A stretch of 64,000 bases of DNA, from assembly GCA_948806215.1 (NCBI GenBank), contig CAQIDI010000002.1, positions 12,968 through 76,967 of the forward strand, given 5' to 3'. The stretch's first letter is position 1. Each line of letters starts with the position of its first letter. The notes under the pieces were generated by a model, which was given only the letters and a program-made list of their open reading frames with translations, was not told the origin of the DNA and did no database searches. The position numbers were made by a program, and so were the translations under genes. Shown here piece by piece: positions 3,887 to 20,441 of this stretch. The stretch is from an uncultured Eubacteriales bacterium (lineage in GTDB: Bacteria > Bacillota > Clostridia > Christensenellales > UBA1242).

Positions 3887-4603
3887 TTATTTTATTAAAT
3901 TATATTTTTTAAATATTTTGTTAGCCTTTTCCATTTCGGCGTTAGTTGGTTCTTTGGTTGAATACAACTTATAATCCATTCCTAATTCTTTCCATTTATA
4001 TTCACCCATTTTATGAAACGGCAATAATTCAACGCGCTTAACACATTTAAAGTTGCTTAAAAACTTTGCTAAATTTTCTAGTTCTTCAAAATTTAATGTG
4101 TAGTTTGGAACAATAACGTGTCGTATCCAAACCGGCTTGTTGATTTTTTCGCAATATTCTAGTGTGTTTAAAGTGTTAAAGTTTTCAACACCAGTTAAAG
4201 TTTTACTTAACTGATTATTTAATGCTTTTATATCTAGCAACAACATATCGCTTGCATTAATAACTTTTTTGCTAATTTTTAGTGGAAGCGAACCTGCTGT
4301 GTCAACCGCAACTTTTATGTTTAACTTATGCAATCTTTTTATTAACGAATAAACAAATCTATGTTGCAAAAGTGGTTCTCCACCAGATATTGTAACACCG
4401 CCCGAGCTAATATAGTTTAAATATGGCTTAATGCCATTAACAACTTGTGTTACGCTCATTTTTTTTCCAGCTTTAATTTTCCACGAATCAGGGTTATGAC
4501 AATATAAGCATCTTAAAAAGCAACCTTGCATAAACACAACATATCTAACACCGGGGCCATCAACTGCACCAAAGGTTTCAACTGAGTGAATATATCCTTT
4601 CAT
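3887..4603 (-). CDS. pflA: pyruvate formate-lyase activating enzyme (radical SAM)
   Basis: 238 aa with CFLRCLYCHN (CxxxCxxC) and GGEPLL, located immediately downstream of pflB. Confidence 0.9.
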   Translation of the reverse strand: MKGYIHSVETFGAVDGPGVRYVVFMQGCFLRCLYCHNPDSWKIKAGKKMSVTQVVNGIKPYLNYISSGGVTISGGEPLLQHRFVYSLIKRLHKLNIKVAVDTAGSLPLKISKKVINASDMLLLDIKALNNQLSKTLTGVENFNTLNTLEYCEKINKPVWIRHVIVPNYTLNFEELENLAKFLSNFKCVKRVELLPFHKMGEYKWKELGMDYKLYSTKEPTNAEMEKANKIFKKYNLIK

Positions 4604-4614
4604 ATAACACCAAA

Positions 4615-6825
4615 TTAGAACCTTGTGTGGAAAGTACGATTAATAACATCTTGTTGTTGTTCTTTTGTTAATTTAATAAAGTTAACTGCGTAGCCAGAAA
4701 CTCGAATTGTTAGTTGTGGATATTTTTCTGGATGATCCATAGCATCTAATAAAACATCTCTATTTAAAACATTAACATTTAAGTGATGTCCTTTATCGCC
4801 AAAATACCCATCCATTAACGAAACTAGGTTTTTAACTTTGTCTTCTTCGGTTGTGCCAAGAGCCGATGGAATAATAGAGAATGTGTTACTAATACCATCT
4901 TCGGCACTATCGTAAGGAAGTTTAGAAACCGATTTTAAAGATGCAACACAACCCATTTTATCACGGCCGTGCATTGGGTTTGCACCCGGGGCAAATGGTT
5001 CGCCAAGTTTTCTACCATCAGGAGTAGAACCTGTGTGCTTACCATAAACAACATTACTGGTTATTGTTAAAACCGATAAGGTTTGACGGCTATTTCTGTA
5101 AGTTGGCTGTTTGCGTAGTTTTTTAATAAACGAATTAACAATCCAAATAGCAATTTTATCGGCACGGCTATCGTTATTACCATATTTAGGATAATCACCT
5201 TCAATTTCAAAATCGATAGCAACACCATTTTCATCTCTAATTGGTTTTACTTTTGCATATTTAATTGCCGATAAACTATCGGCAACAACGCTTAAGCCTG
5301 CAATTCCGCCAGCCATAGTTCTTACAATTTCGTTATCGTGCAAAGCCATTTCAATGCTTTCATAGCAATATTTATCGTGCATATAGTGAATAGCATTTAA
5401 TGTGTTAACATAAAGTTTTGCAAGCCAATCAAGAGTTATATCAAAATTTTTAATAACTTTTTTATATTCTAAATATTCATCAGGAATTGGGTCGCACACA
5501 TCGTATAAATCTTCTTTAGTTATTTCATCAACTCCACCATTAATTGCATAAAGCAAAGCTTTTGCTAAGTTACAACGAGCACCAAAGAATTGCATTTGTT
5601 TTCCAATACGCATTGCCGAAACGCAACAAGCAATACCATAATCGTCGCCAAATTTAGGACGCATTATATCATCGTTTTCGTATTGAATAGAACTTGTGTT
5701 AATAGAAGTTTTTGCAACATATTTTTTAAAGTTTTCTGGTAGATTCTTACTCCATAAAATTGTTAAGTTAGGTTCTGGAGCAGGGCCTAAATTGGTTAAT
5801 GTATGCAAAAATCTAAAGCTCATTTTAGTAACCATATGTCTGCCATCGTTACACATTCCACCAATAGATTCGGTTACCCAAGTTGGGTCGCCAGAAAATA
5901 ATCTGTCGTATTCGCCGGTTCTTAAAAATCTTACAATTCTAAGTTTCATAATAAAATGGTCAACAAATTCTTGAATTTGGCTTTCAGAATATTTTCCAGA
6001 TTTTAAATCTTGTTCGGCATAAATATCTAAGAATGTGCTAATTCTACCAATACTCATAGCCGCACCATTTTGATCTTTAACAGCAGAAAGATATGCAAAA
6101 TATAACCATTGAATAGCTTCTTTAACATCGGTTGCTGGTTTAGAAATATCAAAACCATAATTACTAGCCATTTGTTTTAATGCTTTTAATGCTTTAATTT
6201 GTTCTGCAATTTCTTCACGGTTTCTAATAACTTCTTCGGTGAAAGTTTTTTGTTCATCTTCTTTTAAACTATTACGCTTTTGTTCAATTAAATAATCAAC
6301 ACCATAAAGTGGAACTCTGCGATAGTCGCCAATAATTCTGCCCCTGCCATATGCATCAGGTAGTCCGGTTATTATGTGAGTGTGGCGTGCGGCACGCATT
6401 TCGGAAGTGTAAACATCAAAAACACCATCGTTATGTGTTTTACGATATTTAAACACGTTAGCCACATCGGCATCCATTTCACGGTTATATTCTTCCATTT
6501 CTTTATAAACCAATCTAATTCCGCCAAATGGCATAATTGCTCTTTTTAAAGGTTCATCGGTTTGCAAGCCAACAATTTTTTCTAATTTTTTATCAATATA
6601 ACCCGGGTTATGAGCAGTTATTGTGGAAATGGTTTTATTATCAATATCGTAAACACCACCACGTTCGCGTTCAACTTTCATTTTTTCTAAAAGTTCATTC
6701 CAAAGCTTAACTGTGTTTTTTGTAGGTTTAGTTAAAAAACTTTCGTCACCGCTATAAGGGGTATAGTTTTTAACAATAAAATCTCTTACATTAATATTTT
6801 TATCTTCGTGGTAAATATACTTCAT
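4615..6825 (-). CDS. pflB: pyruvate formate-lyase (formate C-acetyltransferase)
   Basis: Active-site GIACCVSA and C-terminal glycyl-radical motif RVSGYAVNF. The ATG at 6825 follows GGAGA. The tracked ORF begins 4 codons earlier (6837) without an SD. Confidence 0.95.
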
Positions 6826-7522: not shown

Positions 7523-9679
7523 TTATACATCTTTGTTATCGATGTGTAAAACTCTATCTCTTATTTCTTGAGTTCTGCCTTTATTCCAAAAGTTTGTTCC
7601 AATGTAACCACAAGTTCTACGAGCAACATTAAGTGTATCGTGATCACGATTGCCACAATTTGGGCAATACCAATCTAAATTATCATCAATTAACACTTCA
7701 CCTGTGTAACCACATTTTTGGCAGTAATCGCTTTTTGTATTTAGTTCGGCATACATAATATTATCGTAAATAAACTTAATAACTTGTAAAACAACTTCTA
7801 AATTGTTTTGTAGGTTTGGTGTTTCAACATAAGATATAGCACCACCTGGGCTTAGTTTTTGGAAATCGCTTTCTAATTTTAATTTAGAGAACGCATCAAT
7901 TTCTTCAAACACTGGAACGTGATAAGAGTTGGTAACATAATTCTTATCGTTAATTCCTTTAATTTCGCCAAATCTTTTCTTTAAGCATTTGGCAAATTTA
8001 TAGGTAACCGATTCGATTGGAGTGCCATAAACACTATAATCAATGTCTTCAACTTCTTTCCAAGCACTGCAAGCATCGTTTAGTTTTTGCATAACTTCTA
8101 TTGCAAACTCTTTTCCTTTTCCGCCATCGGTGTGGCTATTGCCAGTCATATATTTAACACACTCATATAGTCCGGCATATCCAAGAGAAATTGTTGAATA
8201 TCCACCGTGAAGTAATGGGTGAATGCTTTCTCCTTTTTCAAGCCTTGCAAGTGCTCCGTGTTGCCACAAAATTGGTGCAATATCGCTTGTTGCTTTAGCC
8301 AATCGTTCGTGACGAAGTTTTAATGCTTTGTGGCAAAGTTCTAATCGTTCGTCGTAAATTTTCCAGAATTTATCTTTATCGCCACCAGAAGATAATGCAA
8401 TATCAACTAGGTTAAGAGTAACAACGCCTTGGTTAAAACGTCCATAGTATTTTCCTTTGTTGGTTGTTGGGTCAACATAAGGAGTTAAGAACGAACGGCA
8501 TCCCATACAAGGATAGCAGTTGCCTTCACCGTTTTTGTTTATTTTTAGTTCTAACATTTTCTTTTCAGAAATATAGTCTGGAACCATACGTTTAGCTGTG
8601 CACTCTGCTGCTAATTTTGTTAAATAATAATACTTACTATCTTCGTGGATATTATCTTCTTCTAAAACATACAAAAGTTTTGGGAACGCAGGAGTAATAT
8701 AAACTCCTTTTTCGTTTTTCATACCTTCTATTCGTTGTTTTAAAATTTCTTCGATAATTAAAGATAATTCGTATTTATATTCTTCGGTTTCACCAAGATA
8801 TAAGCAAACACTAAGGAATGGTGCTTGACCATTGGTGGTTGTCATAGAGTTAACTTGATATTGAAAAGTTTGAACTCCATCTTTAATTTCTTTTAAAACA
8901 TCTTCTTTAGCAAATTTTTCACATTGTTCCGAAGTTAACTTTCTATCTTTATACTTTTTTAAATAACGATTATAACTATCTCTAACAAATGGTGCTAAGT
9001 GCGACATTGTTACGGTTGCTCCACCATATTGGCTAGAAGTTACAGCGGTTATAATTTGAGTTGCGATTGTCATAGCTGTTAAAAACTTATGTGGTTTTTC
9101 AATCATAACGCCATTAATGTTTGTTCCATTTTGCAACATATCTTCAAGGTTAATTAAATCACAGTTATGAAGCGCGTTTTGTGCAAAATAATCGGCATCG
9201 TGGAAATGCAAAATACCTTCATCGTGAGCTTTAACAATATCTTCTGGTAATAAAAATCTTCTAGTAATATCAGTACTAGTAATACCAGCTAAATAATCAC
9301 GCTGAGTTGTTACAATTTTTGCATTTTTATTGGAGTTTTCGGTGTTCCAATATTCGCTTTCGCCATCGATTAATTCTTTAATTGTTTGGTCGGTGGTGTT
9401 AGCTTTTCTAATTAATGCACGGTTATAACGATAAACAATATATTTTTTTGCAAGTTCATAATGACCTTGTTCCATAAGTTTTTCTTCAATAATATCTTGA
9501 ATATCTTCAACCAAAATGCGTTTTTTATCTAATTCATTAATATAATTAACAATTTCTTTAATATCTTCTTTACTAGCTCGCAAAGATGGTTTAACTTCTT
9601 TGTTAGCCTTTCCAATTGCAATTTCTATCTTACTTTGGTCAAAATCAACTATGTTACCATCACGTTTAATTACTTGCAT
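7523..9679 (-). CDS. nrdD: anaerobic ribonucleoside-triphosphate reductase
   Basis: ATP-cone N terminus, C-terminal Zn ribbon (CQKCGY...CPNCG) and glycyl-radical motif RRTCGYIG. The start at 9679 follows GGGGGA. The tracked ORF extends to 9703. Confidence 0.95.
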   Translation of the reverse strand: MQVIKRDGNIVDFDQSKIEIAIGKANKEVKPSLRASKEDIKEIVNYINELDKKRILVEDIQDIIEEKLMEQGHYELAKKYIVYRYNRALIRKANTTDQTIKELIDGESEYWNTENSNKNAKIVTTQRDYLAGITSTDITRRFLLPEDIVKAHDEGILHFHDADYFAQNALHNCDLINLEDMLQNGTNINGVMIEKPHKFLTAMTIATQIITAVTSSQYGGATVTMSHLAPFVRDSYNRYLKKYKDRKLTSEQCEKFAKEDVLKEIKDGVQTFQYQVNSMTTTNGQAPFLSVCLYLGETEEYKYELSLIIEEILKQRIEGMKNEKGVYITPAFPKLLYVLEEDNIHEDSKYYYLTKLAAECTAKRMVPDYISEKKMLELKINKNGEGNCYPCMGCRSFLTPYVDPTTNKGKYYGRFNQGVVTLNLVDIALSSGGDKDKFWKIYDERLELCHKALKLRHERLAKATSDIAPILWQHGALARLEKGESIHPLLHGGYSTISLGYAGLYECVKYMTGNSHTDGGKGKEFAIEVMQKLNDACSAWKEVEDIDYSVYGTPIESVTYKFAKCLKKRFGEIKGINDKNYVTNSYHVPVFEEIDAFSKLKLESDFQKLSPGGAISYVETPNLQNNLEVVLQVIKFIYDNIMYAELNTKSDYCQKCGYTGEVLIDDNLDWYCPNCGNRDHDTLNVARRTCGYIGTNFWNKGRTQEIRDRVLHIDNKDV

Positions 9680-12060: not shown

Positions 12061-12088
12061 AAAATAACCACCATTTCGGTGGTTGTTT
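12061..12088. terminator. bidirectional terminator between aspS and the GT2 gene
   Basis: AACCACC-atttc-GGTGGTT flanked by an A-run and a T-run. Confidence 0.75.
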
Positions 12089-13393
12089 TTAATTATTAAC
12101 ATTTTGTGATTCGATATCTTCAATATTTCTTGAATCGGTGTGCGGAATTTGTTTCCATTTAACTTTTTTAAATAGTGCAACAATCGAAATAGGAAGATAT
12201 GAAAACATAAACACTGGAAACATTAAAGAATGTTTTATTTTTTGCCAGAATGTTGTTTTAACACGCTTACGTTCGCTTATTAAAATCAACATTCCATAAG
12301 CAAATAATAAAGCATAGAAAATTGCAATGGTTGATAATAATCCCGCTAAAATTGTTAAAATCGGAACTGGAGCACCTGGTGCGATTTTTGATGTGAATGT
12401 GTAGAATGCACCATATATAATATAAATTATGTTCCAAAAAACAGTTATTGCCGAGAATGGGAATATCATTATCATCATTTCGTAACTTGCAAATCCGTTA
12501 CGAGTAAATAGCGATGCAAACAATGCCAAAAAATAACCAACAAAACATTGATAAAAACCTTTTTGCCAACGCATGCGTTGATTCCAACTTGCTTTAAAAG
12601 TTGTTGGCTGTTCATCGTAGAAAATTGCATCGTCGCAATATGTAACTTTTTCGCCACAAGCAATGTTATTTGTGCTAAATTCTATATCTTCGGTTAAAGT
12701 TGTGTATTTCCAACCAGTATCAACATTTAATATTTGTGAACTAACTGTAAAACCTGTTCCCGAAACAAAGGTACTGGTGTTAAGCAATGCACGAGGAGTG
12801 TGTATAAATCTGCACTCTCTTAAAAAAGCCATACCTGTTGTTGCTGAAACCCAATTGGTGTTAAAGTTTTTAGAGTTACGATAACTTGTTATTATTTTAG
12901 AACCGTTATCAAAAGCTTTGTTAACCTCTAAAACATAGTTTTTATCTAGCAAGTTATCAGCATCAAAAATCATATAAGCATCGGGAATGTAATCTGGAAA
13001 GTCTTGTTTTATTTTTTCAAGTAAAAAATCTAATGCGTAACCCTTACCGACAACTTCTTTATTAAAGCGTTCGTAAACAGTGCATTCAACTTCTGGATAC
13101 TTTTGAGCTGCTTCTCTTGCCACATTAGCTGTGCTATCGGTGCAGTTATCAGCAACCATAAAAATTTTTAGTTTGCTTTTGTCGTAGTTCTGTGTTTGAA
13201 TACTATTTATTAACTGACCAATAACTTTTTCTTCGTTACGCCCTGCAATTAAAACAGCATAGGTATGATCTTGTTTGGCTTCTGGAAATTTCTTTTTAAA
13301 AAATAAGCCTATAGCACCCAAAACAAACTTATAGGAAAATAACACAGTAAATGTTATAGATATTATCAAATTTATAATTTCAAGAATCTTCAT
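12089..13393 (-). CDS. membrane-embedded processive family-2 glycosyltransferase (polysaccharide synthase-like), paralog 1
   Basis: 434 aa with an N-terminal TM, motifs FDADN, LTEDIEF and QRMRWQKG (Q-x-x-R-W), and C-terminal multi-TM. Confidence 0.85.
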   Translation of the reverse strand: MKILEIINLIISITFTVLFSYKFVLGAIGLFFKKKFPEAKQDHTYAVLIAGRNEEKVIGQLINSIQTQNYDKSKLKIFMVADNCTDSTANVAREAAQKYPEVECTVYERFNKEVVGKGYALDFLLEKIKQDFPDYIPDAYMIFDADNLLDKNYVLEVNKAFDNGSKIITSYRNSKNFNTNWVSATTGMAFLRECRFIHTPRALLNTSTFVSGTGFTVSSQILNVDTGWKYTTLTEDIEFSTNNIACGEKVTYCDDAIFYDEQPTTFKASWNQRMRWQKGFYQCFVGYFLALFASLFTRNGFASYEMMIMIFPFSAITVFWNIIYIIYGAFYTFTSKIAPGAPVPILTILAGLLSTIAIFYALLFAYGMLILISERKRVKTTFWQKIKHSLMFPVFMFSYLPISIVALFKKVKWKQIPHTDSRNIEDIESQNVNN

Positions 13394-13434
13394 AATTATA
13401 TTATGTTACCCTTTTAAATTCACTTAGCTTATCT

Positions 13435-13463
13435 ATTATAAAATATCCCCCCCCCCGCGTCAA
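13435..13463 (-). promoter_or_regulatory. promoter of GT2 paralog 1 with a homopolymeric G10 tract in the spacer
   Basis: Minus strand TTGACG-C-G10-ATATTT-TATAAT. The -35 is 13463-13458 and the -10 is 13440-13435, with a spacer of exactly 17 nt. Confidence 0.7.
13447..13456. repeat. C10/G10 homopolymer (candidate slipped-strand contingency tract)
   Basis: Ten consecutive C on the given strand. It is the only long G/C homopolymer I found in this AT-rich window. Confidence 0.9.
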
Positions 13464-13581: not shown

Positions 13582-13616
13582 AAAAAAAAGAGCAACATTT
13601 TATTGTTGCTCTTTTT
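13582..13616 (-). terminator. intrinsic terminator after GT2 paralog 2
   Basis: GAGCAAC-loop-GTTGCTC flanked by an A8 run and a T-run. It separates the two GT2 genes into distinct transcription units. Confidence 0.75.
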
Positions 13617-13629
13617 GTTTTATTAAATT

Positions 13630-14997
13630 TTATTCGTTAACAACTGTTGTACTATCAGAATTATTTTCGCTGTTATCAGCATTAGCTTTTAAAACAACAA
13701 CTTCGCTACCACCAGTTTCGTTTAGAGTTTCAAAATCAGTTGTGTCGTCGTGTGGAATTGTTTTCCAGCCACAATTTTTATTAAATACTGCCACAACATC
13801 AATTGGGAATTGTAGTAACAAAAATAGTGGCCAAACCAAACTCATAACTACTTTTTTAAAGAAACTAACATTTTTAATTCTCTTGCGTTCCAAAATAAAG
13901 ATAACAATTGCACTTAACAACCCCGTTGCATAAGTGGTTACACTAACAAACAACATTCGTTTTAACCATTCAAGCAAAACTGGTCCTAAACTTATACCAA
14001 ACAATGGTGAAAACAATAGCATTATAAATTGTAAAATACTAATGGTTGTTAACACTAAGCAAAATGGCATAATGTTAATTAAAATATCGTAAGTGGAAAC
14101 TTTGTTTTTCTTTTTAAACGAAAATAAACTTTTTAAAAGTTCTTTTGTTTTTTGTAAATATACTAGTAAGTGCCCACGGCTCCACCTAACACGCTGACGC
14201 CACATAACTTTAAAACTGGTTGGTTGTTCATCGTAGAACACAGCTTCGTCACAATATTTAATTTTTTGACCTTTTAAAATTTGATCAGCTGTAAATTCCC
14301 AATCCTCGGTTAGTGTAACATATTTCCAGCCATCCTCAACCAATTTTGAATTTATAACATAACCTGTTCCTTGAACACGGGTGGAACAATTTAAAACAGT
14401 TCTTCCGCGACTTTCAAGCCTACATCCAATCATGAAATACAAACCATACATGCCTGAAATTATGTTACTACCAAAGTTTTTAGAATTTCTAAACGATGTT
14501 ATAACATATTCACCATTGCAAGAATCAAAGGCATCGTTCATTTTTTCAAAATAATCGGCACTTAAAATATTATCGGCATTAAACAAGAAAAAACCATCGT
14601 AACTATTAATGCCATAATCTCTTTTAATACATTTAAATAAATGCCTAAACGCATAACCCATTGTACATTCGTTTGGATTATTATATTCATAAACAGTTGC
14701 ACCTAATTCTCTTGAAATTTCGGCAGTTTTATCGGTGCAATTGTGTGCTATAACAAAAACATGAAGTTTATCTTGCGGATAGTTATTTTTATAAATACTT
14801 TTAATTAAATTACCAACAACCTTTTCTTCGTTTCGTGCTGGAATAATAATGCCATATTTTCGTTGTGTTTTTGCTTTTGGATATTTTTTGTAAGCAAAAA
14901 TTCCCACAATAGAAAAAAATATAAAATGAAAAACTAATAACGAACAAAATGCAAATATACATCCAAAAACAATATCAATTATTTGATTATATGCCAT
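13630..14997 (-). CDS. membrane-embedded processive family-2 glycosyltransferase, paralog 2
   Basis: 455 aa with FNADN (Asn replaces the first Asp of the DxD-like motif), LTEDWEF and QRVRWSRG, C-terminal multi-TM and an acidic/Ser-rich tail. Confidence 0.85.
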   Translation of the reverse strand: MAYNQIIDIVFGCIFAFCSLLVFHFIFFSIVGIFAYKKYPKAKTQRKYGIIIPARNEEKVVGNLIKSIYKNNYPQDKLHVFVIAHNCTDKTAEISRELGATVYEYNNPNECTMGYAFRHLFKCIKRDYGINSYDGFFLFNADNILSADYFEKMNDAFDSCNGEYVITSFRNSKNFGSNIISGMYGLYFMIGCRLESRGRTVLNCSTRVQGTGYVINSKLVEDGWKYVTLTEDWEFTADQILKGQKIKYCDEAVFYDEQPTSFKVMWRQRVRWSRGHLLVYLQKTKELLKSLFSFKKKNKVSTYDILINIMPFCLVLTTISILQFIMLLFSPLFGISLGPVLLEWLKRMLFVSVTTYATGLLSAIVIFILERKRIKNVSFFKKVVMSLVWPLFLLLQFPIDVVAVFNKNCGWKTIPHDDTTDFETLNETGGSEVVVLKANADNSENNSDSTTVVNE

Positions 14998-15050: not shown

Positions 15051-15079
15051 ATTTTACCATCAATCCTCCACAGTGTCAA
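15051..15079 (-). promoter_or_regulatory. promoter of GT2 paralog 2
   Basis: Minus strand TTGACA (15079-15074), a 17-nt spacer, then TAAAAT (15056-15051). SD is AGGGGAG before the ATG. Confidence 0.6.
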
Positions 15080-15231: not shown

Positions 15232-16848
15232 TTAAAATTTTGCTTCGAAGCATGCACTAGGAATCCATTTTCCTGTTTCAAAGTCGCGACCTAAAACCAT
15301 AACCTTGTCTTCGTAAACTTTAATGTAGTAACCTTGTGAACCTTTTAAATACTCACCTGTTGGAATATAGTAACTGCTCCATAAATATGCAACTGAGGCA
15401 GTGTTAAACACATTTGGTAATTCACTATCTTTAGCATGCATTGACCCTCTTGTGTTTAAATCCCAGTGACTATGTCCATTAAACATATAAATTTGTGGAT
15501 ATTTTTTTACAATCGCGCGTAACTCACTATCCTGTGTTACACCATCCCAACCCTGACCTTCAAAGCTTCCGGCAATAGTGTTGTAAAGTGATTGATGTAA
15601 ATAAACAAACACAGGTTTATTAGGTTCGGCTGTTGTAATTTCGTTTAACCTATTATCAAACCAATCTAATTGGTCTTGTTCAAGCCACGCATCAACTCCA
15701 CTATATAAGTTAGATTGGCTACCTAAGAAAATGTGGTTATAACCGTTAATTTGTTTTTCGTAGTAAACCGAATCGGTTTCGGCATACTTTTTAAAATAGC
15801 CAACTTGGGTGTTATAATCGCCAAAATATAAATCATGATTTCCAAGTGAATAATAAATGTTTGGCATTCCATTAACAGAATTTGCTATATTAATTGCTTC
15901 TTGCCATTCGTTTTCTCTGCCAGAATTAGCAATGTCACCAACAATAATAACACCGTCGCTATTGCTGTTTGAAACAATATCATTACACATATCTAAATAA
16001 TGCTTACTATGCAATGTTTTTGCATCGGAACTTGCTAAATGTGTATCGGCTAATGCAATATGAATATCGCTTACAACTTGAAACTCACTAAGTGGTGCTT
16101 CTAACTCATCATATTGGCAACCCTGAGGTAAATTTATTTCAGCATAGCCTTCACTAATTCCAACGTTATTATAACAATAAGCAATAAGTTTAGTTGCATT
16201 GTGTGGAATTATTGTGTTTTCGTACATATTAAATGTTGTAGGGTTTCCATTGACTCTAAAGGTTGCTAGGTTTGTGTAATCGGTTAAAATTCCGTTTTCA
16301 TTAGCCCAATATAACATAATATCGGAAGCATGATAACCAGATTGTAAATAAACTTTAACTTCACCATTAGCCAAGCCCGACGAAGTATTTGCAATGTTAT
16401 ACTCAATCTTTGTTGGGGCTTGTGGTGTTGTAAGTTTATCCTTAACAACAACAAATGGAGCTATTTCTTTAATATTATTTTCGGCATCGAATAAAATTGC
16501 ATTATATGCCCCTGCCGGAAAATTTCTATATGCTTGACGACTTTGGTTAAAAGTTGCTGCACGTTGAAGTGAATAGGTATTACCAGAAATAAATCCATTG
16601 CGGTTAACCCAATACCATCTAATAGATTCCACTTCAGAGATATTATCAGTAACTCTATAAACGCCAACCCAATTAGATTCGTCCCCTTTAGCAGTTATTA
16701 AAATTTCTTCGTTTGTGTAGTACTTTGCTTTATTAGTTTTTATTTGTCTTTCTGGTAATATAATGTTTACACAACCCGACAAACAACATAAACATAACAA
16801 CAATAAAACAGAAGCCAATGCACATAAACTTTTTAACTTTGTTTTCAT
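15232..16848 (-). CDS. surface lipoprotein with an N-terminal beta-sandwich-like module and a C-terminal calcineurin-like metallophosphoesterase
   Basis: 538 aa with signal peptide and lipobox LSGC. Motifs are SDIHI, GDIANSG, GNHD, LHQS and GHSHW. The N-terminal module carries a WVGVY motif. Confidence 0.8.
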   Translation of the reverse strand: MKTKLKSLCALASVLLLLCLCCLSGCVNIILPERQIKTNKAKYYTNEEILITAKGDESNWVGVYRVTDNISEVESIRWYWVNRNGFISGNTYSLQRAATFNQSRQAYRNFPAGAYNAILFDAENNIKEIAPFVVVKDKLTTPQAPTKIEYNIANTSSGLANGEVKVYLQSGYHASDIMLYWANENGILTDYTNLATFRVNGNPTTFNMYENTIIPHNATKLIAYCYNNVGISEGYAEINLPQGCQYDELEAPLSEFQVVSDIHIALADTHLASSDAKTLHSKHYLDMCNDIVSNSNSDGVIIVGDIANSGRENEWQEAINIANSVNGMPNIYYSLGNHDLYFGDYNTQVGYFKKYAETDSVYYEKQINGYNHIFLGSQSNLYSGVDAWLEQDQLDWFDNRLNEITTAEPNKPVFVYLHQSLYNTIAGSFEGQGWDGVTQDSELRAIVKKYPQIYMFNGHSHWDLNTRGSMHAKDSELPNVFNTASVAYLWSSYYIPTGEYLKGSQGYYIKVYEDKVMVLGRDFETGKWIPSACFEAKF

Positions 16849-16960: not shown

Positions 16961-19900
16961 CTATTCTCCAATTTGAATCTCTATTTGTTCTTCAATAGTA
17001 TAACCTGAAGTATTAAATAAAACAATTTTATATTTTCCTGCAGGTAAACTTAAATATTCTGCTCTTGAATCACCCGGAATTTGCTCTTTAATGTTATAAG
17101 CTTCACCTGATACATGAGTATCATCAACAACATAATAATAGTAAATTGATTGATCTACACCAATAACATCATCTACTAAATAAATTCCTACCCAGAAGGA
17201 TTTAAAGTTATTTGCTGGGCGTGTTGCTGTAATTAAAACATCTTCACCAACAGCATACTGTGTTTTGTTTACAGAAACTGTACCTTTTTCTTCGCTAACA
17301 GGGGCTTCCAAAATTTCGAATACAATTTGTTTCTCAACTGTGTATCCAGAAGTGTTAAATAACACCATTTTATATTCACCCTTAGGTAATTCTTTTAAAT
17401 CTATACGTTCTGAGTTAAATGATTGTTCTTTAATATTATAAGCTGTGCCTGATGTGTGACAAGCGTCAATCACATAATACCAATAAATTGATTTTGCTGT
17501 GTTAAAATCAGTATCACTGGTTAAATATAATCCAACCCACCAAGTGCCCTCAGCTGAACCATTTGGAGCAATTGCTGTAACTAAAATTGATTCATCCTCG
17601 TAGTAACTTGTTTTATTCAATGTTAATCTTTCGAAATCAGCAGGAACAACGCTTAATACTGCATATCTGCGTTCTAATTCTAAACCATCAAATTTAAATA
17701 TTGCAACTGCTTGCGAAGTGCCAGCATCAGTTAAAGTGTTATTTAAATATTCAACTGTAACACCACTTGGCAAATCACCAGTTATAGTTAATGATTGAGC
17801 AGTGCCATTAGCAACAACTTCGCCATCATTAAATTCGATATTTGATAAATCAACCAATCCACTATTTGTTCCACTTGGTAAAACAGTGATATCAATTGAA
17901 TATTTATAGTCGTAACCACTATTTATAAAGTAATATAGAACATAATCGCCAACTGGCAACTCTTCTGATTTATTTGCAATTGTTTCTTGCAAACATATAG
18001 TTCTAATTAATTTATCGTTAAATCTGTTAAAGTAATAATAGAAGTAAGAAATCTCATTGCTTTCAACATTTCCAGGAACTGCACCTTTACGATAGATTCC
18101 TACCCATGCATCCTTTGTTAAAGTTTCGTTTTCACGCGAAATGCTAACAAAAACTTTTTCGCCATAGTTATAAACAGCCTTATTAGTTGCAAATTTAGAA
18201 ACTGTTATTGTTGCTTTTCTGCGTCCAACAACTTCCGATCCTTGCTTAAATGTTGCAACAATATCTTTTGAACCAATTTCTGTTAGTTTTGGATCGGCAT
18301 CATATTCAACTGTAACGCCATTTGGCATTCCAGTTGCTGCAATAGTTTTTTCTGTGCCATCGTAAATATATAATTTGCTTTCAAATTTTACTGAACTTAA
18401 ATCAATTTTATCTTCATATTCGTAAACAGTATCGGCAACAACTGGTGTGGCTTTTTGCCAATTAAATTCGCCAAAATTATAAGAAGTGTTAAACACATTT
18501 AAAAAATCCATATAGGAATTAACATTGCCATTTGCAACGCTGTGAATTTTATTTTCTTCATCAGCATAAGATAAATATTTTAAATAGTCTTTAGCAACAT
18601 AATTAGAATATTGAGTATCAATATATTTATAAACATTATAAGAAGGTTTTGTGTTACGACTAACATCAATTAAACCTGGTCTTAAACTTGCACCAACTTC
18701 GGCTTCGTGATCGTATAACCTATAATAATACCAAGCAACAACCGAATCCAACTGAGTTATTTTATACCAAGTAGCTGCAATAGCACCTGCTTGTTGGTTT
18801 CTATCTAGTTCAGTATCGTTTAACGAAGAAACACCAGATTCTGTTAAATAAACTTTTCTAACTGTGTTGTTATATTTTAATTCAGGTTGATTTAGATACA
18901 TATCTAAAATTTCTAAGTTAGAAAATGTTAGCTTTGTTGAAGTGTTATAATCGTTAGACATTCCAACTTTTCTACCATTTAAAGTATCTTGCAAGAAAAT
19001 TTCTGCTGGAGCTAAACCATATGTGTAGCAATGAGGAGCAATAGCCCAATCATAATCGCCTTCGGCTTTGGTTTTGTTATTTAACCATTCTATCATTGCT
19101 TTTGGAGCATAAGCTTGAACAGCGGTTGCTGGTTTAATTGTGTAACCCGGTTCAGACCAAGCTTGAGTAAATGGAACTGAAACTGTGATATCTTTATGAT
19201 ATTTTTTAGCAGCCAAGTTTGTTAAACGAAGAAGCCTTGAATATTCTTCCATATAAGTTTCAAGTGGTAATTGTTTTTCTGACATACGGTTATAATCTTT
19301 TGCATAGTCAATTTCGTTTTCTACAACAAAGTTACCAATATAACCATTTGCGAAATTATTAGTTGTGTAACGATTGCTTAAAAATTCGATTATTGCAACA
19401 TAATATTCAAAACCATAACTGTTTGAAGAATTAAAGCCCATTAACACAGTTCCCTCGGTTGACCAAGGATAGTATGTTAATTTTCTTGGAAAAATTTCTT
19501 CGTTGGTGTTTTTAGCAGCATATAAAATTGCTGTTACGTGTGCACCCAAGCGATAGTAATCGTTAACTTGTTTATCAAACCAATCAACAACACTTTTTCT
19601 AAAATAATAAGTTTTTCCATTTGAATCAAAAGTTATAAAGTCGCTATCAGGATGAGCAAGCTCAATAGCTTCGCCATTTTCATCAATTATTTCGTTTGGA
19701 TAAACTAATCTTTCAATATCAAAGTTTAAAGTAGCATAAGAACAATTTAAATCTTCAAAATAATTAGCATTTTCGCCAAGTAAACCCTTTTTTGATTTTA
19801 AATCTAATGTTGGGTTATTTTTTACTTGCGCTTCAATTTCTGTAGTATAAATTGGACCTTTTAAAATTGTATCATCTAAAACAACATAATATTTGTTATA

Positions 19901-20275
19901 GATCATATCAAAGTTATCTTTGTATCTATCAATTTCTAAGGTAGCTTCGGTTCCTAATTTATAGTCCCCTACAATAGTACCTTCGCCTATGTTTGAAACC
20001 ACATTTTCCGATAAGCCCTTAATGTTATCGCCTTTAAAATATTCGTAAGCTTTAACACCAATAACTTTGGCTGTTTTGTTTCCAACTTCCGCCTCAGAAC
20101 TATTTAACTTAACAGTTAGCTTTTCAGCACTGGCAGAAATTGTCATTGTTATTGCTTTTTGATCGCCACTAGGCGGATTTTCTGGGTCGACACAACCACA
20201 AGCTAAACCTGTTAAGCACAAACCAAAAGTTAACAACGCGCTAATTAAAATTGTTAATATTTTTTTGCTTTTCAT
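16961..20275 (-). CDS. large surface lipoprotein with a clan GH-A-like TIM-barrel glycoside hydrolase core plus repeated C-terminal beta-sandwich-like modules
   Basis: Start MKSKKIL at 20275 follows AAGGAG (the tracked ORF extends to 20308). Signal peptide ends in GLACGC. Candidate acid/base VENEIDY and nucleophile YLTESG. Two GVTVEY repeats and three roughly 100-aa WVG(I/L)Y modules. Confidence 0.7.
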   Translation of the reverse strand: MKSKKILTILISALLTFGLCLTGLACGCVDPENPPSGDQKAITMTISASAEKLTVKLNSSEAEVGNKTAKVIGVKAYEYFKGDNIKGLSENVVSNIGEGTIVGDYKLGTEATLEIDRYKDNFDMIYNKYYVVLDDTILKGPIYTTEIEAQVKNNPTLDLKSKKGLLGENANYFEDLNCSYATLNFDIERLVYPNEIIDENGEAIELAHPDSDFITFDSNGKTYYFRKSVVDWFDKQVNDYYRLGAHVTAILYAAKNTNEEIFPRKLTYYPWSTEGTVLMGFNSSNSYGFEYYVAIIEFLSNRYTTNNFANGYIGNFVVENEIDYAKDYNRMSEKQLPLETYMEEYSRLLRLTNLAAKKYHKDITVSVPFTQAWSEPGYTIKPATAVQAYAPKAMIEWLNNKTKAEGDYDWAIAPHCYTYGLAPAEIFLQDTLNGRKVGMSNDYNTSTKLTFSNLEILDMYLNQPELKYNNTVRKVYLTESGVSSLNDTELDRNQQAGAIAATWYKITQLDSVVAWYYYRLYDHEAEVGASLRPGLIDVSRNTKPSYNVYKYIDTQYSNYVAKDYLKYLSYADEENKIHSVANGNVNSYMDFLNVFNTSYNFGEFNWQKATPVVADTVYEYEDKIDLSSVKFESKLYIYDGTEKTIAATGMPNGVTVEYDADPKLTEIGSKDIVATFKQGSEVVGRRKATITVSKFATNKAVYNYGEKVFVSISRENETLTKDAWVGIYRKGAVPGNVESNEISYFYYYFNRFNDKLIRTICLQETIANKSEELPVGDYVLYYFINSGYDYKYSIDITVLPSGTNSGLVDLSNIEFNDGEVVANGTAQSLTITGDLPSGVTVEYLNNTLTDAGTSQAVAIFKFDGLELERRYAVLSVVPADFERLTLNKTSYYEDESILVTAIAPNGSAEGTWWVGLYLTSDTDFNTAKSIYWYYVIDACHTSGTAYNIKEQSFNSERIDLKELPKGEYKMVLFNTSGYTVEKQIVFEILEAPVSEEKGTVSVNKTQYAVGEDVLITATRPANNFKSFWVGIYLVDDVIGVDQSIYYYYVVDDTHVSGEAYNIKEQIPGDSRAEYLSLPAGKYKIVLFNTSGYTIEEQIEIQIGE

Positions 20276-20441
20276 AAAAATTTTCTCCTTTAACCTTATT
20301 TTGTTCAAAGCATAATAAAAAAATTTAATTTAATGCCAATAATTTTAACACTAAACTAATATAATTAATTTTTTTGTATCCTAGTCAATTATAATCGCTT
20401 AGTAAAATTTTGTCAAAAAAATAAGCAAAATTGTGGTTCGC

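Follow-up and report, generated by a model that had tools for sequence, protein, structure and literature searches.

What is a run of ten guanines doing in the middle of a promoter, and what might it do to the gene behind it? This question is raised by a locus in a 64-kb stretch of DNA (64,000 nucleotides, hereafter the window) of contig CAQIDI010000002.1, from an uncultured Eubacteriales bacterium (assembly GCA_948806215.1). There, a G10 tract forms part of the -35/-10 spacer of a predicted promoter, upstream of a gene for a processive membrane-embedded polysaccharide synthase with a family 2 glycosyltransferase (GT2) domain, which we call GT2-B. An original prediction, made from the sequence, had proposed this tract as the switch of a phase-variable promoter. 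Our analyses lead us to consider it probable that the tract, in the spacer of what appears to be a sigma-A/sigma-70-type promoter, tunes GT2-B expression by slippage.

The anatomy of the promoter is straightforward. Both direct reading and a script give TTGACG-C-G10-ATATTT-TATAAT for positions 13463..13435 of the minus strand, and with its flanks the promoter reads ...GTAAAGTA-TTGACG-C-GGGGGGGGGG-ATATTT-TATAAT-AGATAAGC... on that strand. The -35 hexamer TTGACG (13458..13463) agrees with TTGACA at five of six positions and is invariant in all same-species assemblies, and the -10 hexamer TATAAT (13435..13440) is a 6/6 match, with no TGn extension. These near-consensus hexamers flanking G10, which had been correctly recognised at the outset, reach a consensus score of 11/12, among the two best in the 4-kb neighbourhood in a consensus scan. 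The spacer (13441..13457, minus strand) measures 17 nt in the window and 16-19 nt in other assemblies. It is made up of a C at 13457, the G tract at 13447..13456 (C10 on the plus strand), which fills 10 of the 17 positions, and ATATTT at 13446..13441. From the end of the -10 hexamer to the ATG of GT2-B (13393) there are 41 nt, and the tract occupies positions 54-63 nt upstream of this codon. A homopolymer between recognisable -35 and -10 hexamers is the arrangement that characterises promoter-spacer variation of the porA/opc/vlp type. On the minus strand, the poly-G promoter is the only promoter match of 9/12 or better from the terminator at 13585 to the ATG. A second TATAAT, at 13400..13395, was considered as a promoter and ruled out, as it adjoins the ATG and has no -35 hexamer.

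How unusual is the tract? Apart from the C10 at 13447-13456, no G/C run in the 64-kb window is longer than six, in line with the earlier claim that there is no other long G/C homopolymer there. A single C6 at 28622 comes next, and runs of G do not go beyond five. From the base frequencies, a stretch of 64 kb should contain about 0.001 runs of at least ten G/C. For promoter-like matches, the AT-rich region shows no enrichment, with 23 found versus 20.7 expected. Since such hexamer pairs are not enriched, the non-random feature is the tract together with its placement, not the hexamers. A tandem-repeat search of the window yielded no other convincing contingency-type repeat.

If slippage acts on the tract, its length should differ among strains. 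The locus was collected from public assemblies by exact-protein look-ups, which gave four protein-variant lineages with 98-100% nucleotide identity (L numbers designate the individual loci). Exact promoter-pattern scans with a variable gap gave no match in genome and metagenome contig collections, which do not expose this species; the JGI contig L018 does carry the promoter sequence that the pattern scans missed. Tract lengths were counted in the 30 assemblies in which both tract flanks are intact, and all the figures below are consensus-level assembly data, not reads. The commonest length is G11, corresponding to an 18-nt spacer, in 20 of the 30 assemblies (L003, L006, L018, L024, L042, L043, L046-L048, L050, L051, L053, L057-L063 and L065). 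G10, with a 17-nt spacer, is found in seven (the window, L004, L005, L041, L044, L045 and L054), G9 in two (16 nt; L002 and L049) and G12 in a single one (19 nt; L055). Spacers of 17 or 18 nt thus account for 27/30 assemblies. The 'perfect 17-nt' spacer of the original prediction is therefore a property of the window and not of the species as a whole, in which G11 and 18 nt prevail.

The genetic background of these differences is informative. We defined haplotypes as assemblies identical over the 1372 nt adjoining the tract, and five haplotypes contain at least three assemblies. Four of these five display more than one tract length (G9/10/11, G10/11, G10/11 and G10/11/12), which amounts to at least six independent tract-length changes with zero single-nucleotide polymorphisms (SNPs) over 1372 nt. 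A comparison among strains or metagenome-assembled genomes (MAGs), which the original prediction had called for, thus uncovered G9-G12 across the 30 assemblies, with different lengths on SNP-identical backgrounds. Within haplotypes, lengths one G above and one G below the local majority both occur, a pattern compatible with reversible changes, as far as the sequences tell. In near-clonal MAGs with no SNPs relative to the window over 10-16 kb, only the tract was hit repeatedly by insertions or deletions (four assemblies). Three other such events were seen once each, and A/T runs of as many as 9 nt all keep a constant length. Among near-clonal genomes, tract length therefore changes far faster than point substitutions accumulate, and we regard the tract as very probably hypermutable.

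Frameshifting insertions or deletions are present in single near-clonal MAGs: a GG to G change at 8202 in nrdD (L027), a GGGG to GGG change at 6341 in a pyruvate-formate-lyase (PFL)-like gene (L028) and a 7-nt deletion at 16179 in a Metallophos gene (L025). They could be assembly errors or signs of real pseudogenisation.

Is the tract of GT2-B an isolated curiosity? Upstream of it, on the same strand, lies the gene of a paralogous synthase of 455 aa, GT2-A (13630..14997, minus strand), which is 40% identical to GT2-B and has NAD in place of DAD as well as a QRVRW motif. In the window lineage, the GT2-A promoter, TTGACA-CTGTGGAGGATTGATGG-TAAAAT (15051..15079, minus strand), has a 17-nt spacer with TGn and no tract. 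In all other strain lineages of the species, it reads TTGAC(T)G-CGGA-Gn-TAAGTGA-TAAAAT, with G6 and a 17-nt spacer in L018, L047-50, L053 and L054, G7 and an 18-nt spacer in L041, L042, L046, L059 and L062, and G8 and a 19-nt spacer in L057, L058, L060, L061 and L063. G7 and G8 were both found within one haplotype. A motif, TGTAAAGT[A/G]TTTGACGCGG[A/G]GGG, is common to the GT2-A and GT2-B promoters, which look paralogous. As for the window lineage, its GT2-A promoter is on a recombinant segment: precisely at the -10 hexamer, nucleotide identity with L018 falls from 99.5% to 79%.

Related species have poly-G tracts of their own, in coding sequences. In a lineage with 68% identity, a gene for a 575-aa lipoprotein overlaps the stop codon of the GT2 ortholog. 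Its signal peptide region (…L-I-C-G-G-G-I-A-L-S-A-C…) is encoded with a G9 tract that is in frame in L037-L040 (at about 4362), whereas L008, from the mouse-gut MAG MGBC145026, has G8 (at 1405) and is frameshifted. Judged by its sequence, this G9/G8 difference looks like a classic coding-sequence phase switch. In L016, the coding sequence of a GT2 ortholog of 60% identity contains an in-frame G10 tract at 4286-4295; the L016 contig has 49% GC and was binned as 'Prevotella sp.'. The occurrence of poly-G at three different positions in this locus family argues for selection for switchability over accident. It is tempting to speculate that the clade systematically uses poly-G contingency loci to diversify its glycan surface, with the paralogous promoters tuning two polymers combinatorially and the tracts of related species acting within coding sequences, although we put this forward tentatively and hold it to be somewhat less probable than improbable.

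The promoter position appears to be older than the tract. The G tract is missing in the sister lineages L035 and L036, whose GT2 proteins are 84% and 79% identical to GT2-B, and no G/C tract was found upstream of the more distant orthologs examined (58-68% identity; L009-L017 and L037). Nine of 12 orthologs have a tract-less TTGnnn-17-TAtaaT promoter, often with TGn, and with 27-49 nt from the end of its -10 hexamer to the ATG. This similar distance supports the GT2-B promoter being real and its position conserved. The G tract is thus an innovation of this species within a conserved promoter position.

How could the tract act? In the mechanism that we propose, slipped-strand mispairing at replication would add or remove single Gs. 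Each G would shift the -35 hexamer relative to the -10 hexamer by 1 nt and by about 34 degrees of helical twist. The spacer would thereby take 16, 17, 18 or 19 nt, which would alter promoter strength, and the amounts of synthase and of glycan would be reset heritably and reversibly in part of each population. Such a device would be a rheostat and not a strict on/off switch. As the observed lengths all give spacers of 16-19 nt, graded control is likelier than a strict on/off regime, and with most assemblies at 17-18 nt, we expect mostly 'on' states. Of the two possibilities left open by the original prediction, on/off or graded switching, it is thus the graded one that fits the data better, and strict on/off switching is the less likely. 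We infer that the promoter is used, that tract length affects transcription and that length changes at high frequency within populations.

Several observations weigh against this interpretation, and part of them would be expected if there were one true tract length, with G9-G12 resulting from homopolymer sequencing or assembly errors and no switching taking place. Long G runs are error-prone on Illumina instruments. At the start of the loci L052 (1-60) and L056 (1-55), some 50 nt of almost pure poly-C are joined to the tract. This junk is typical of poly-G artefact reads generated by two-colour chemistry, and the site thus attracts artefacts; at least six contigs stop within the tract or directly at it. 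In one haplotype, the deviating lengths G10 (L054) and G12 (L055) were read from contigs of about 5x coverage. NCBI, ENA and Logan assemblies may share runs, so that the independent samples number fewer than 30. In addition, G11, with its 18-nt spacer, is the commonest state, and one lineage has G11 in 8/8 assemblies, which means that the tract can be stable at the consensus level. Nevertheless, errors would not generate G11 in all eight assemblies of that lineage and yet mixtures in four others. They would also not readily account for long contigs of the same haplotype, with presumably good coverage, that differ in length, namely the 240-kb contig of the window and the 256-kb contig L041 with G10, and the 122-kb contig L042 with G11. 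Furthermore, the shorter and less error-prone G6-G8 tract of the GT2-A promoter varies too, and in the related species the independent G9/G8 difference tracks the intact versus frameshifted reading frame. We therefore regard sequencing error as a quite improbable explanation for the whole of the variation. The contig ends within the tract (L007, L025, L032-34 and L064) might suggest within-sample heterogeneity, but in view of the poly-C junk of L052 and L056 they are not counted as evidence.

Alternatively, the tract might be hypermutable and neutral, a mere mutational by-product, if GT2-B has another start or if spacers of 16-19 nt are equally active. All lengths observed do fall in or near this permissive range; all of them may thus keep some activity, and a clean OFF state is not evident. 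In addition, promoter-like matches are not enriched in this AT-rich DNA. A further point against the proposed tuning is that the unusually long Shine-Dalgarno spacing of GT2-B (see below) may make translation initiation weak, which could also limit expression. If neutral, however, a run of ten or 11 Gs should decay in a genome of 31% GC, and yet it is kept in every lineage sampled (98-100% identity), with a length confined to 9-12 and centred on functional spacings. The tract is also framed precisely by hexamers that match at 5/6 and 6/6 positions and sits where the orthologs have their promoter, the paralogous GT2-A promoter carries a tract of its own at the corresponding place in other strains, and no alternative promoter match of 9/12 or better is present on the minus strand from the 13585 terminator to the ATG. 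Neutrality is in our opinion unlikely, albeit worth keeping in mind. Could the G run instead serve primarily as a protein-binding or DNA-structure element, such as an operator or a rigid GC block, its length variation being incidental? A GC-rich spacer is indeed unusual for an AT-rich genome, and the motif common to the two paralogous promoters could be an operator. Yet no regulator gene is adjacent, the orthologous promoters of 12 other species have no such element, and the window lineage has swapped the tract of its GT2-A promoter for unrelated sequence while keeping the 17-nt spacing. This replacement indicates that what is conserved is the spacing and not the sequence, and we give very little credence to a role as a binding or structural element.

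What would be tuned by the tract? GT2-B (12089..13393, minus strand) is a protein of 434 aa that matches the Pfam families Glyco_tranf_2_3 (1.4e-25), Glyco_trans_2_3 and Glycos_transf_2. Its motifs D144-A-D146, T234-E-D236 and Q272-R-M-R-W276 show little or no variation among 47 homologs, and its hydropathy profile indicates one transmembrane segment near the N-terminus and three or more towards the C-terminus. An AlphaFold2 (AF2) model computed from the homolog alignment has a mean pLDDT of 93.2 and a pTM of 0.91. Foldseek comparison of this model with the PDB returned the hyaluronan synthases (HAS) of a Chlorella virus and of Xenopus and the bacterial cellulose synthase BcsA as top matches, all full-length (about 450 aligned columns, TM about 0.6, E = 1e-14 to 1e-15). 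GT2-B thus has both the GT-A motif set and the flanking transmembrane helices and whole-protein fold similarity of the BcsA/HAS class. Altogether, the Pfam families, the DAD, TED and QRMRW motifs, the transmembrane segments and the model identify it as a processive membrane-embedded synthase, and the polysaccharide synthase foreseen from the sequence is borne out by motifs and predicted fold. Among the NCBIfam equivalogs, PgaC/IcaA, EpsU and CelA gave weak partial matches, with 58-91 bits for cut-offs of 422-700, which do not place GT2-B in a named equivalog, and a sequence search of the PDB returned weak N-terminal GT2 matches alone. DAD and QRMRW motifs with about four transmembrane helices have been reported as the signature of mycoplasma galactan synthases (PMC5447728). 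The resemblance of GT2-B to this signature is a lead only. We infer that GT2-B makes a glycan that is secreted or displayed at the surface and is subject to fluctuating selection, exerted for instance by phages, host immunity or adhesion.

The gene appears to be transcribed on its own. GT2-A is followed by an intrinsic terminator (13585..13616, minus strand), a hairpin and then T8, with a predicted energy of -16.7 kcal/mol (z = -6.3), which would shield the poly-G promoter from read-through. The intrinsic terminator of GT2-B (12066..12084, minus strand; -13.1 kcal/mol, z = -3.8) is common to the convergent aspS gene. Because terminators stand on both sides of GT2-B and aspS is convergent, a monocistronic GT2-B unit is plausible, in agreement with the earlier proposal that the upstream paralog has its own terminator and that the promoter serves GT2-B alone. 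The predicted 5' untranslated region is short (13394..13434, minus strand), with a putative start site at about 13428. It contains AAAGGG (13414..13409, minus strand), the sole Shine-Dalgarno-like element of GT2-B, at 15 nt from the ATG. This spacing is unusually long and far exceeds that of GT2-A or of the orthologs. A search with Rfam found no riboswitch or other RNA family near GT2-B, one tRNA being the sole match in the window.

As for the host, the open reading frames of the window, up to 1115 aa long, are intact under translation table 11, and the GC content is about 31%. UGA is thus not read as Trp, and the organism is not a mollicute of the UGA=Trp type. The closest named relatives of its aspartyl-tRNA synthetase (AspRS), 60-65% identical, are from MAGs of Clostridia, Clostridiales or Acutalibacteraceae, and 21.3 kb of the window align with 100% identity to CASXUQ010000001.1 of MAG GCA_949479415.1. 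The genes for NrdD/NrdG and a pyruvate-formate-lyase-like protein point to an anaerobe.

How does this locus relate to known systems? Switching by promoter-spacer repeats is textbook knowledge for Neisseria, Haemophilus, Helicobacter and mycoplasmas. The opc gene, with poly-C, and the vlp genes of Mycoplasma hyorhinis, with poly-A, operate like porA; together with Vmm of M. mycoides, which has a TA repeat, vlp represents the promoter-spacer switches of lipoprotein genes. Studies of opc and vlp are listed in PMC5084427, and that of Vmm in PMC12716728. In Neisseria meningitidis porA, the tract lies between the -35 and -10 hexamers, and expression is high with 11 Gs, 2-fold lower with 10 and 13-fold lower with nine (PMC3639595). 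Like porA and opc, the GT2-B promoter has a G/C homopolymer of 9-12 nt in the -35/-10 spacer of a sigma-70-type promoter of a surface-structure gene, where single-nucleotide slippage would alter spacer length. Unlike these genes, which encode outer-membrane proteins of a proteobacterial pathogen, it belongs to a Gram-positive-type gut commensal of the Clostridia and would affect the expression of a polysaccharide synthase. With vlp and Vmm, it has in common the repeat inside the -35/-10 spacer, low-GC Bacillota/Mollicutes relatives and several paralogs, each with its own variable promoter, that would create combinatorial surface phenotypes. It differs from them by poly-G instead of A or TA repeats, by glycan synthases instead of lipoproteins, and by genetic code 11 and a cell-wall-type genome context.

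Glycan synthases of mycoplasmas are phase variable through an intragenic homopolynucleotide that causes reversible frameshifting (PMC11658790, citing Gaurivaud 2016). By its motifs, GT2-B resembles the Gsm-type synthases, which make beta-1,6-glucan in M. agalactiae, and the galactan synthase of M. mycoides, all being membrane GT2 proteins with DxD and QxxRW. Unlike these on/off frameshift systems, whose tract is in the coding sequence, the tract of GT2-B is in a promoter spacer, and control would be transcriptional and probably graded. No G/C run of six or more was found in the GT2-B coding sequence (12089..13393). The analogy with mycoplasma glycan synthases that the original prediction had drawn thus holds for the biology but neither for the mechanism, as the tract is intragenic there, nor for the taxon, which is a member of the Clostridia using code 11.

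In staphylococci, switching of ica, which governs polysaccharide intercellular adhesin/poly-N-acetylglucosamine (PIA/PNAG), involves IS256 insertion or a tetranucleotide repeat within icaC. Phase variation of staphylococcal ica has been reviewed (PMC7911514). The GT2-B locus resembles ica in that it would specify a GT2 synthase-dependent exopolysaccharide in Bacillota, with a probable mutation-type switch, and in that mobile elements are inserted at the locus in some strains, here serine-recombinase elements (L042-L045). Unlike in ica, the variable element is a promoter-spacer homopolymer. The phase variation described in gut Clostridia is mostly due to DNA inversion. A literature search, whose coverage was incomplete, turned up no report of a simple-sequence-repeat promoter switch for (gut) Clostridia. 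The class of mechanism is well known; what is new is the commensal Clostridia host, the probable promoter-level control of a GT2 synthase and the paired, tract-bearing promoters of two paralogs.

Should slippage indeed tune GT2-B expression, an abundant uncultured commensal lineage would bet-hedge its exopolysaccharide or capsule production, by a mechanism visible in metagenomes. Poly-G tracts would then predictably cause contig breaks and apparent strain differences among MAGs, and tract length could mark, at the level of reads, in vivo selection on surface glycans by phages, IgA or adhesion. The G-tract promoters of the two paralogs would represent a simple natural system for combinatorial glycan expression. 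If systematic use of such tracts across the clade were true, this would be the first simple-sequence-repeat 'phasome' in commensal Clostridia.

The surroundings of the two synthase genes vary among strains. Mobile elements are inserted in L043-L045 (junction at about 13600) and in L042 (about 12075), in both cases inside the loops of the terminator hairpins that flank GT2-B. Each of the two elements encodes a large serine recombinase of 554 aa; the two recombinases are 57% identical to each other, and the L042 element also has restriction-modification genes. In L023, L005/L029 and L006, the flank becomes unrelated near window position ~13490, at a distance of 27-35 nt from the -35 hexamer on its upstream side, and L023 and L005 diverge at the same point. 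These foreign flanks (L023 4006-4130, L005/L029 1-110 and L006 1-34) had no match among the other loci compared and no recognisable coding content. They may be chimeras or an unsampled insertion. Finally, upstream of both synthase genes, the minus strand carries genes for a calcineurin-like phosphoesterase (15232-16848) and for a DUF5722 protein (16961-20308) of 1104-1202 aa depending on the strain. Both are missing from the sister-species loci L035 and L036, and the GT2-A block therefore looks like a species-specific insertion.

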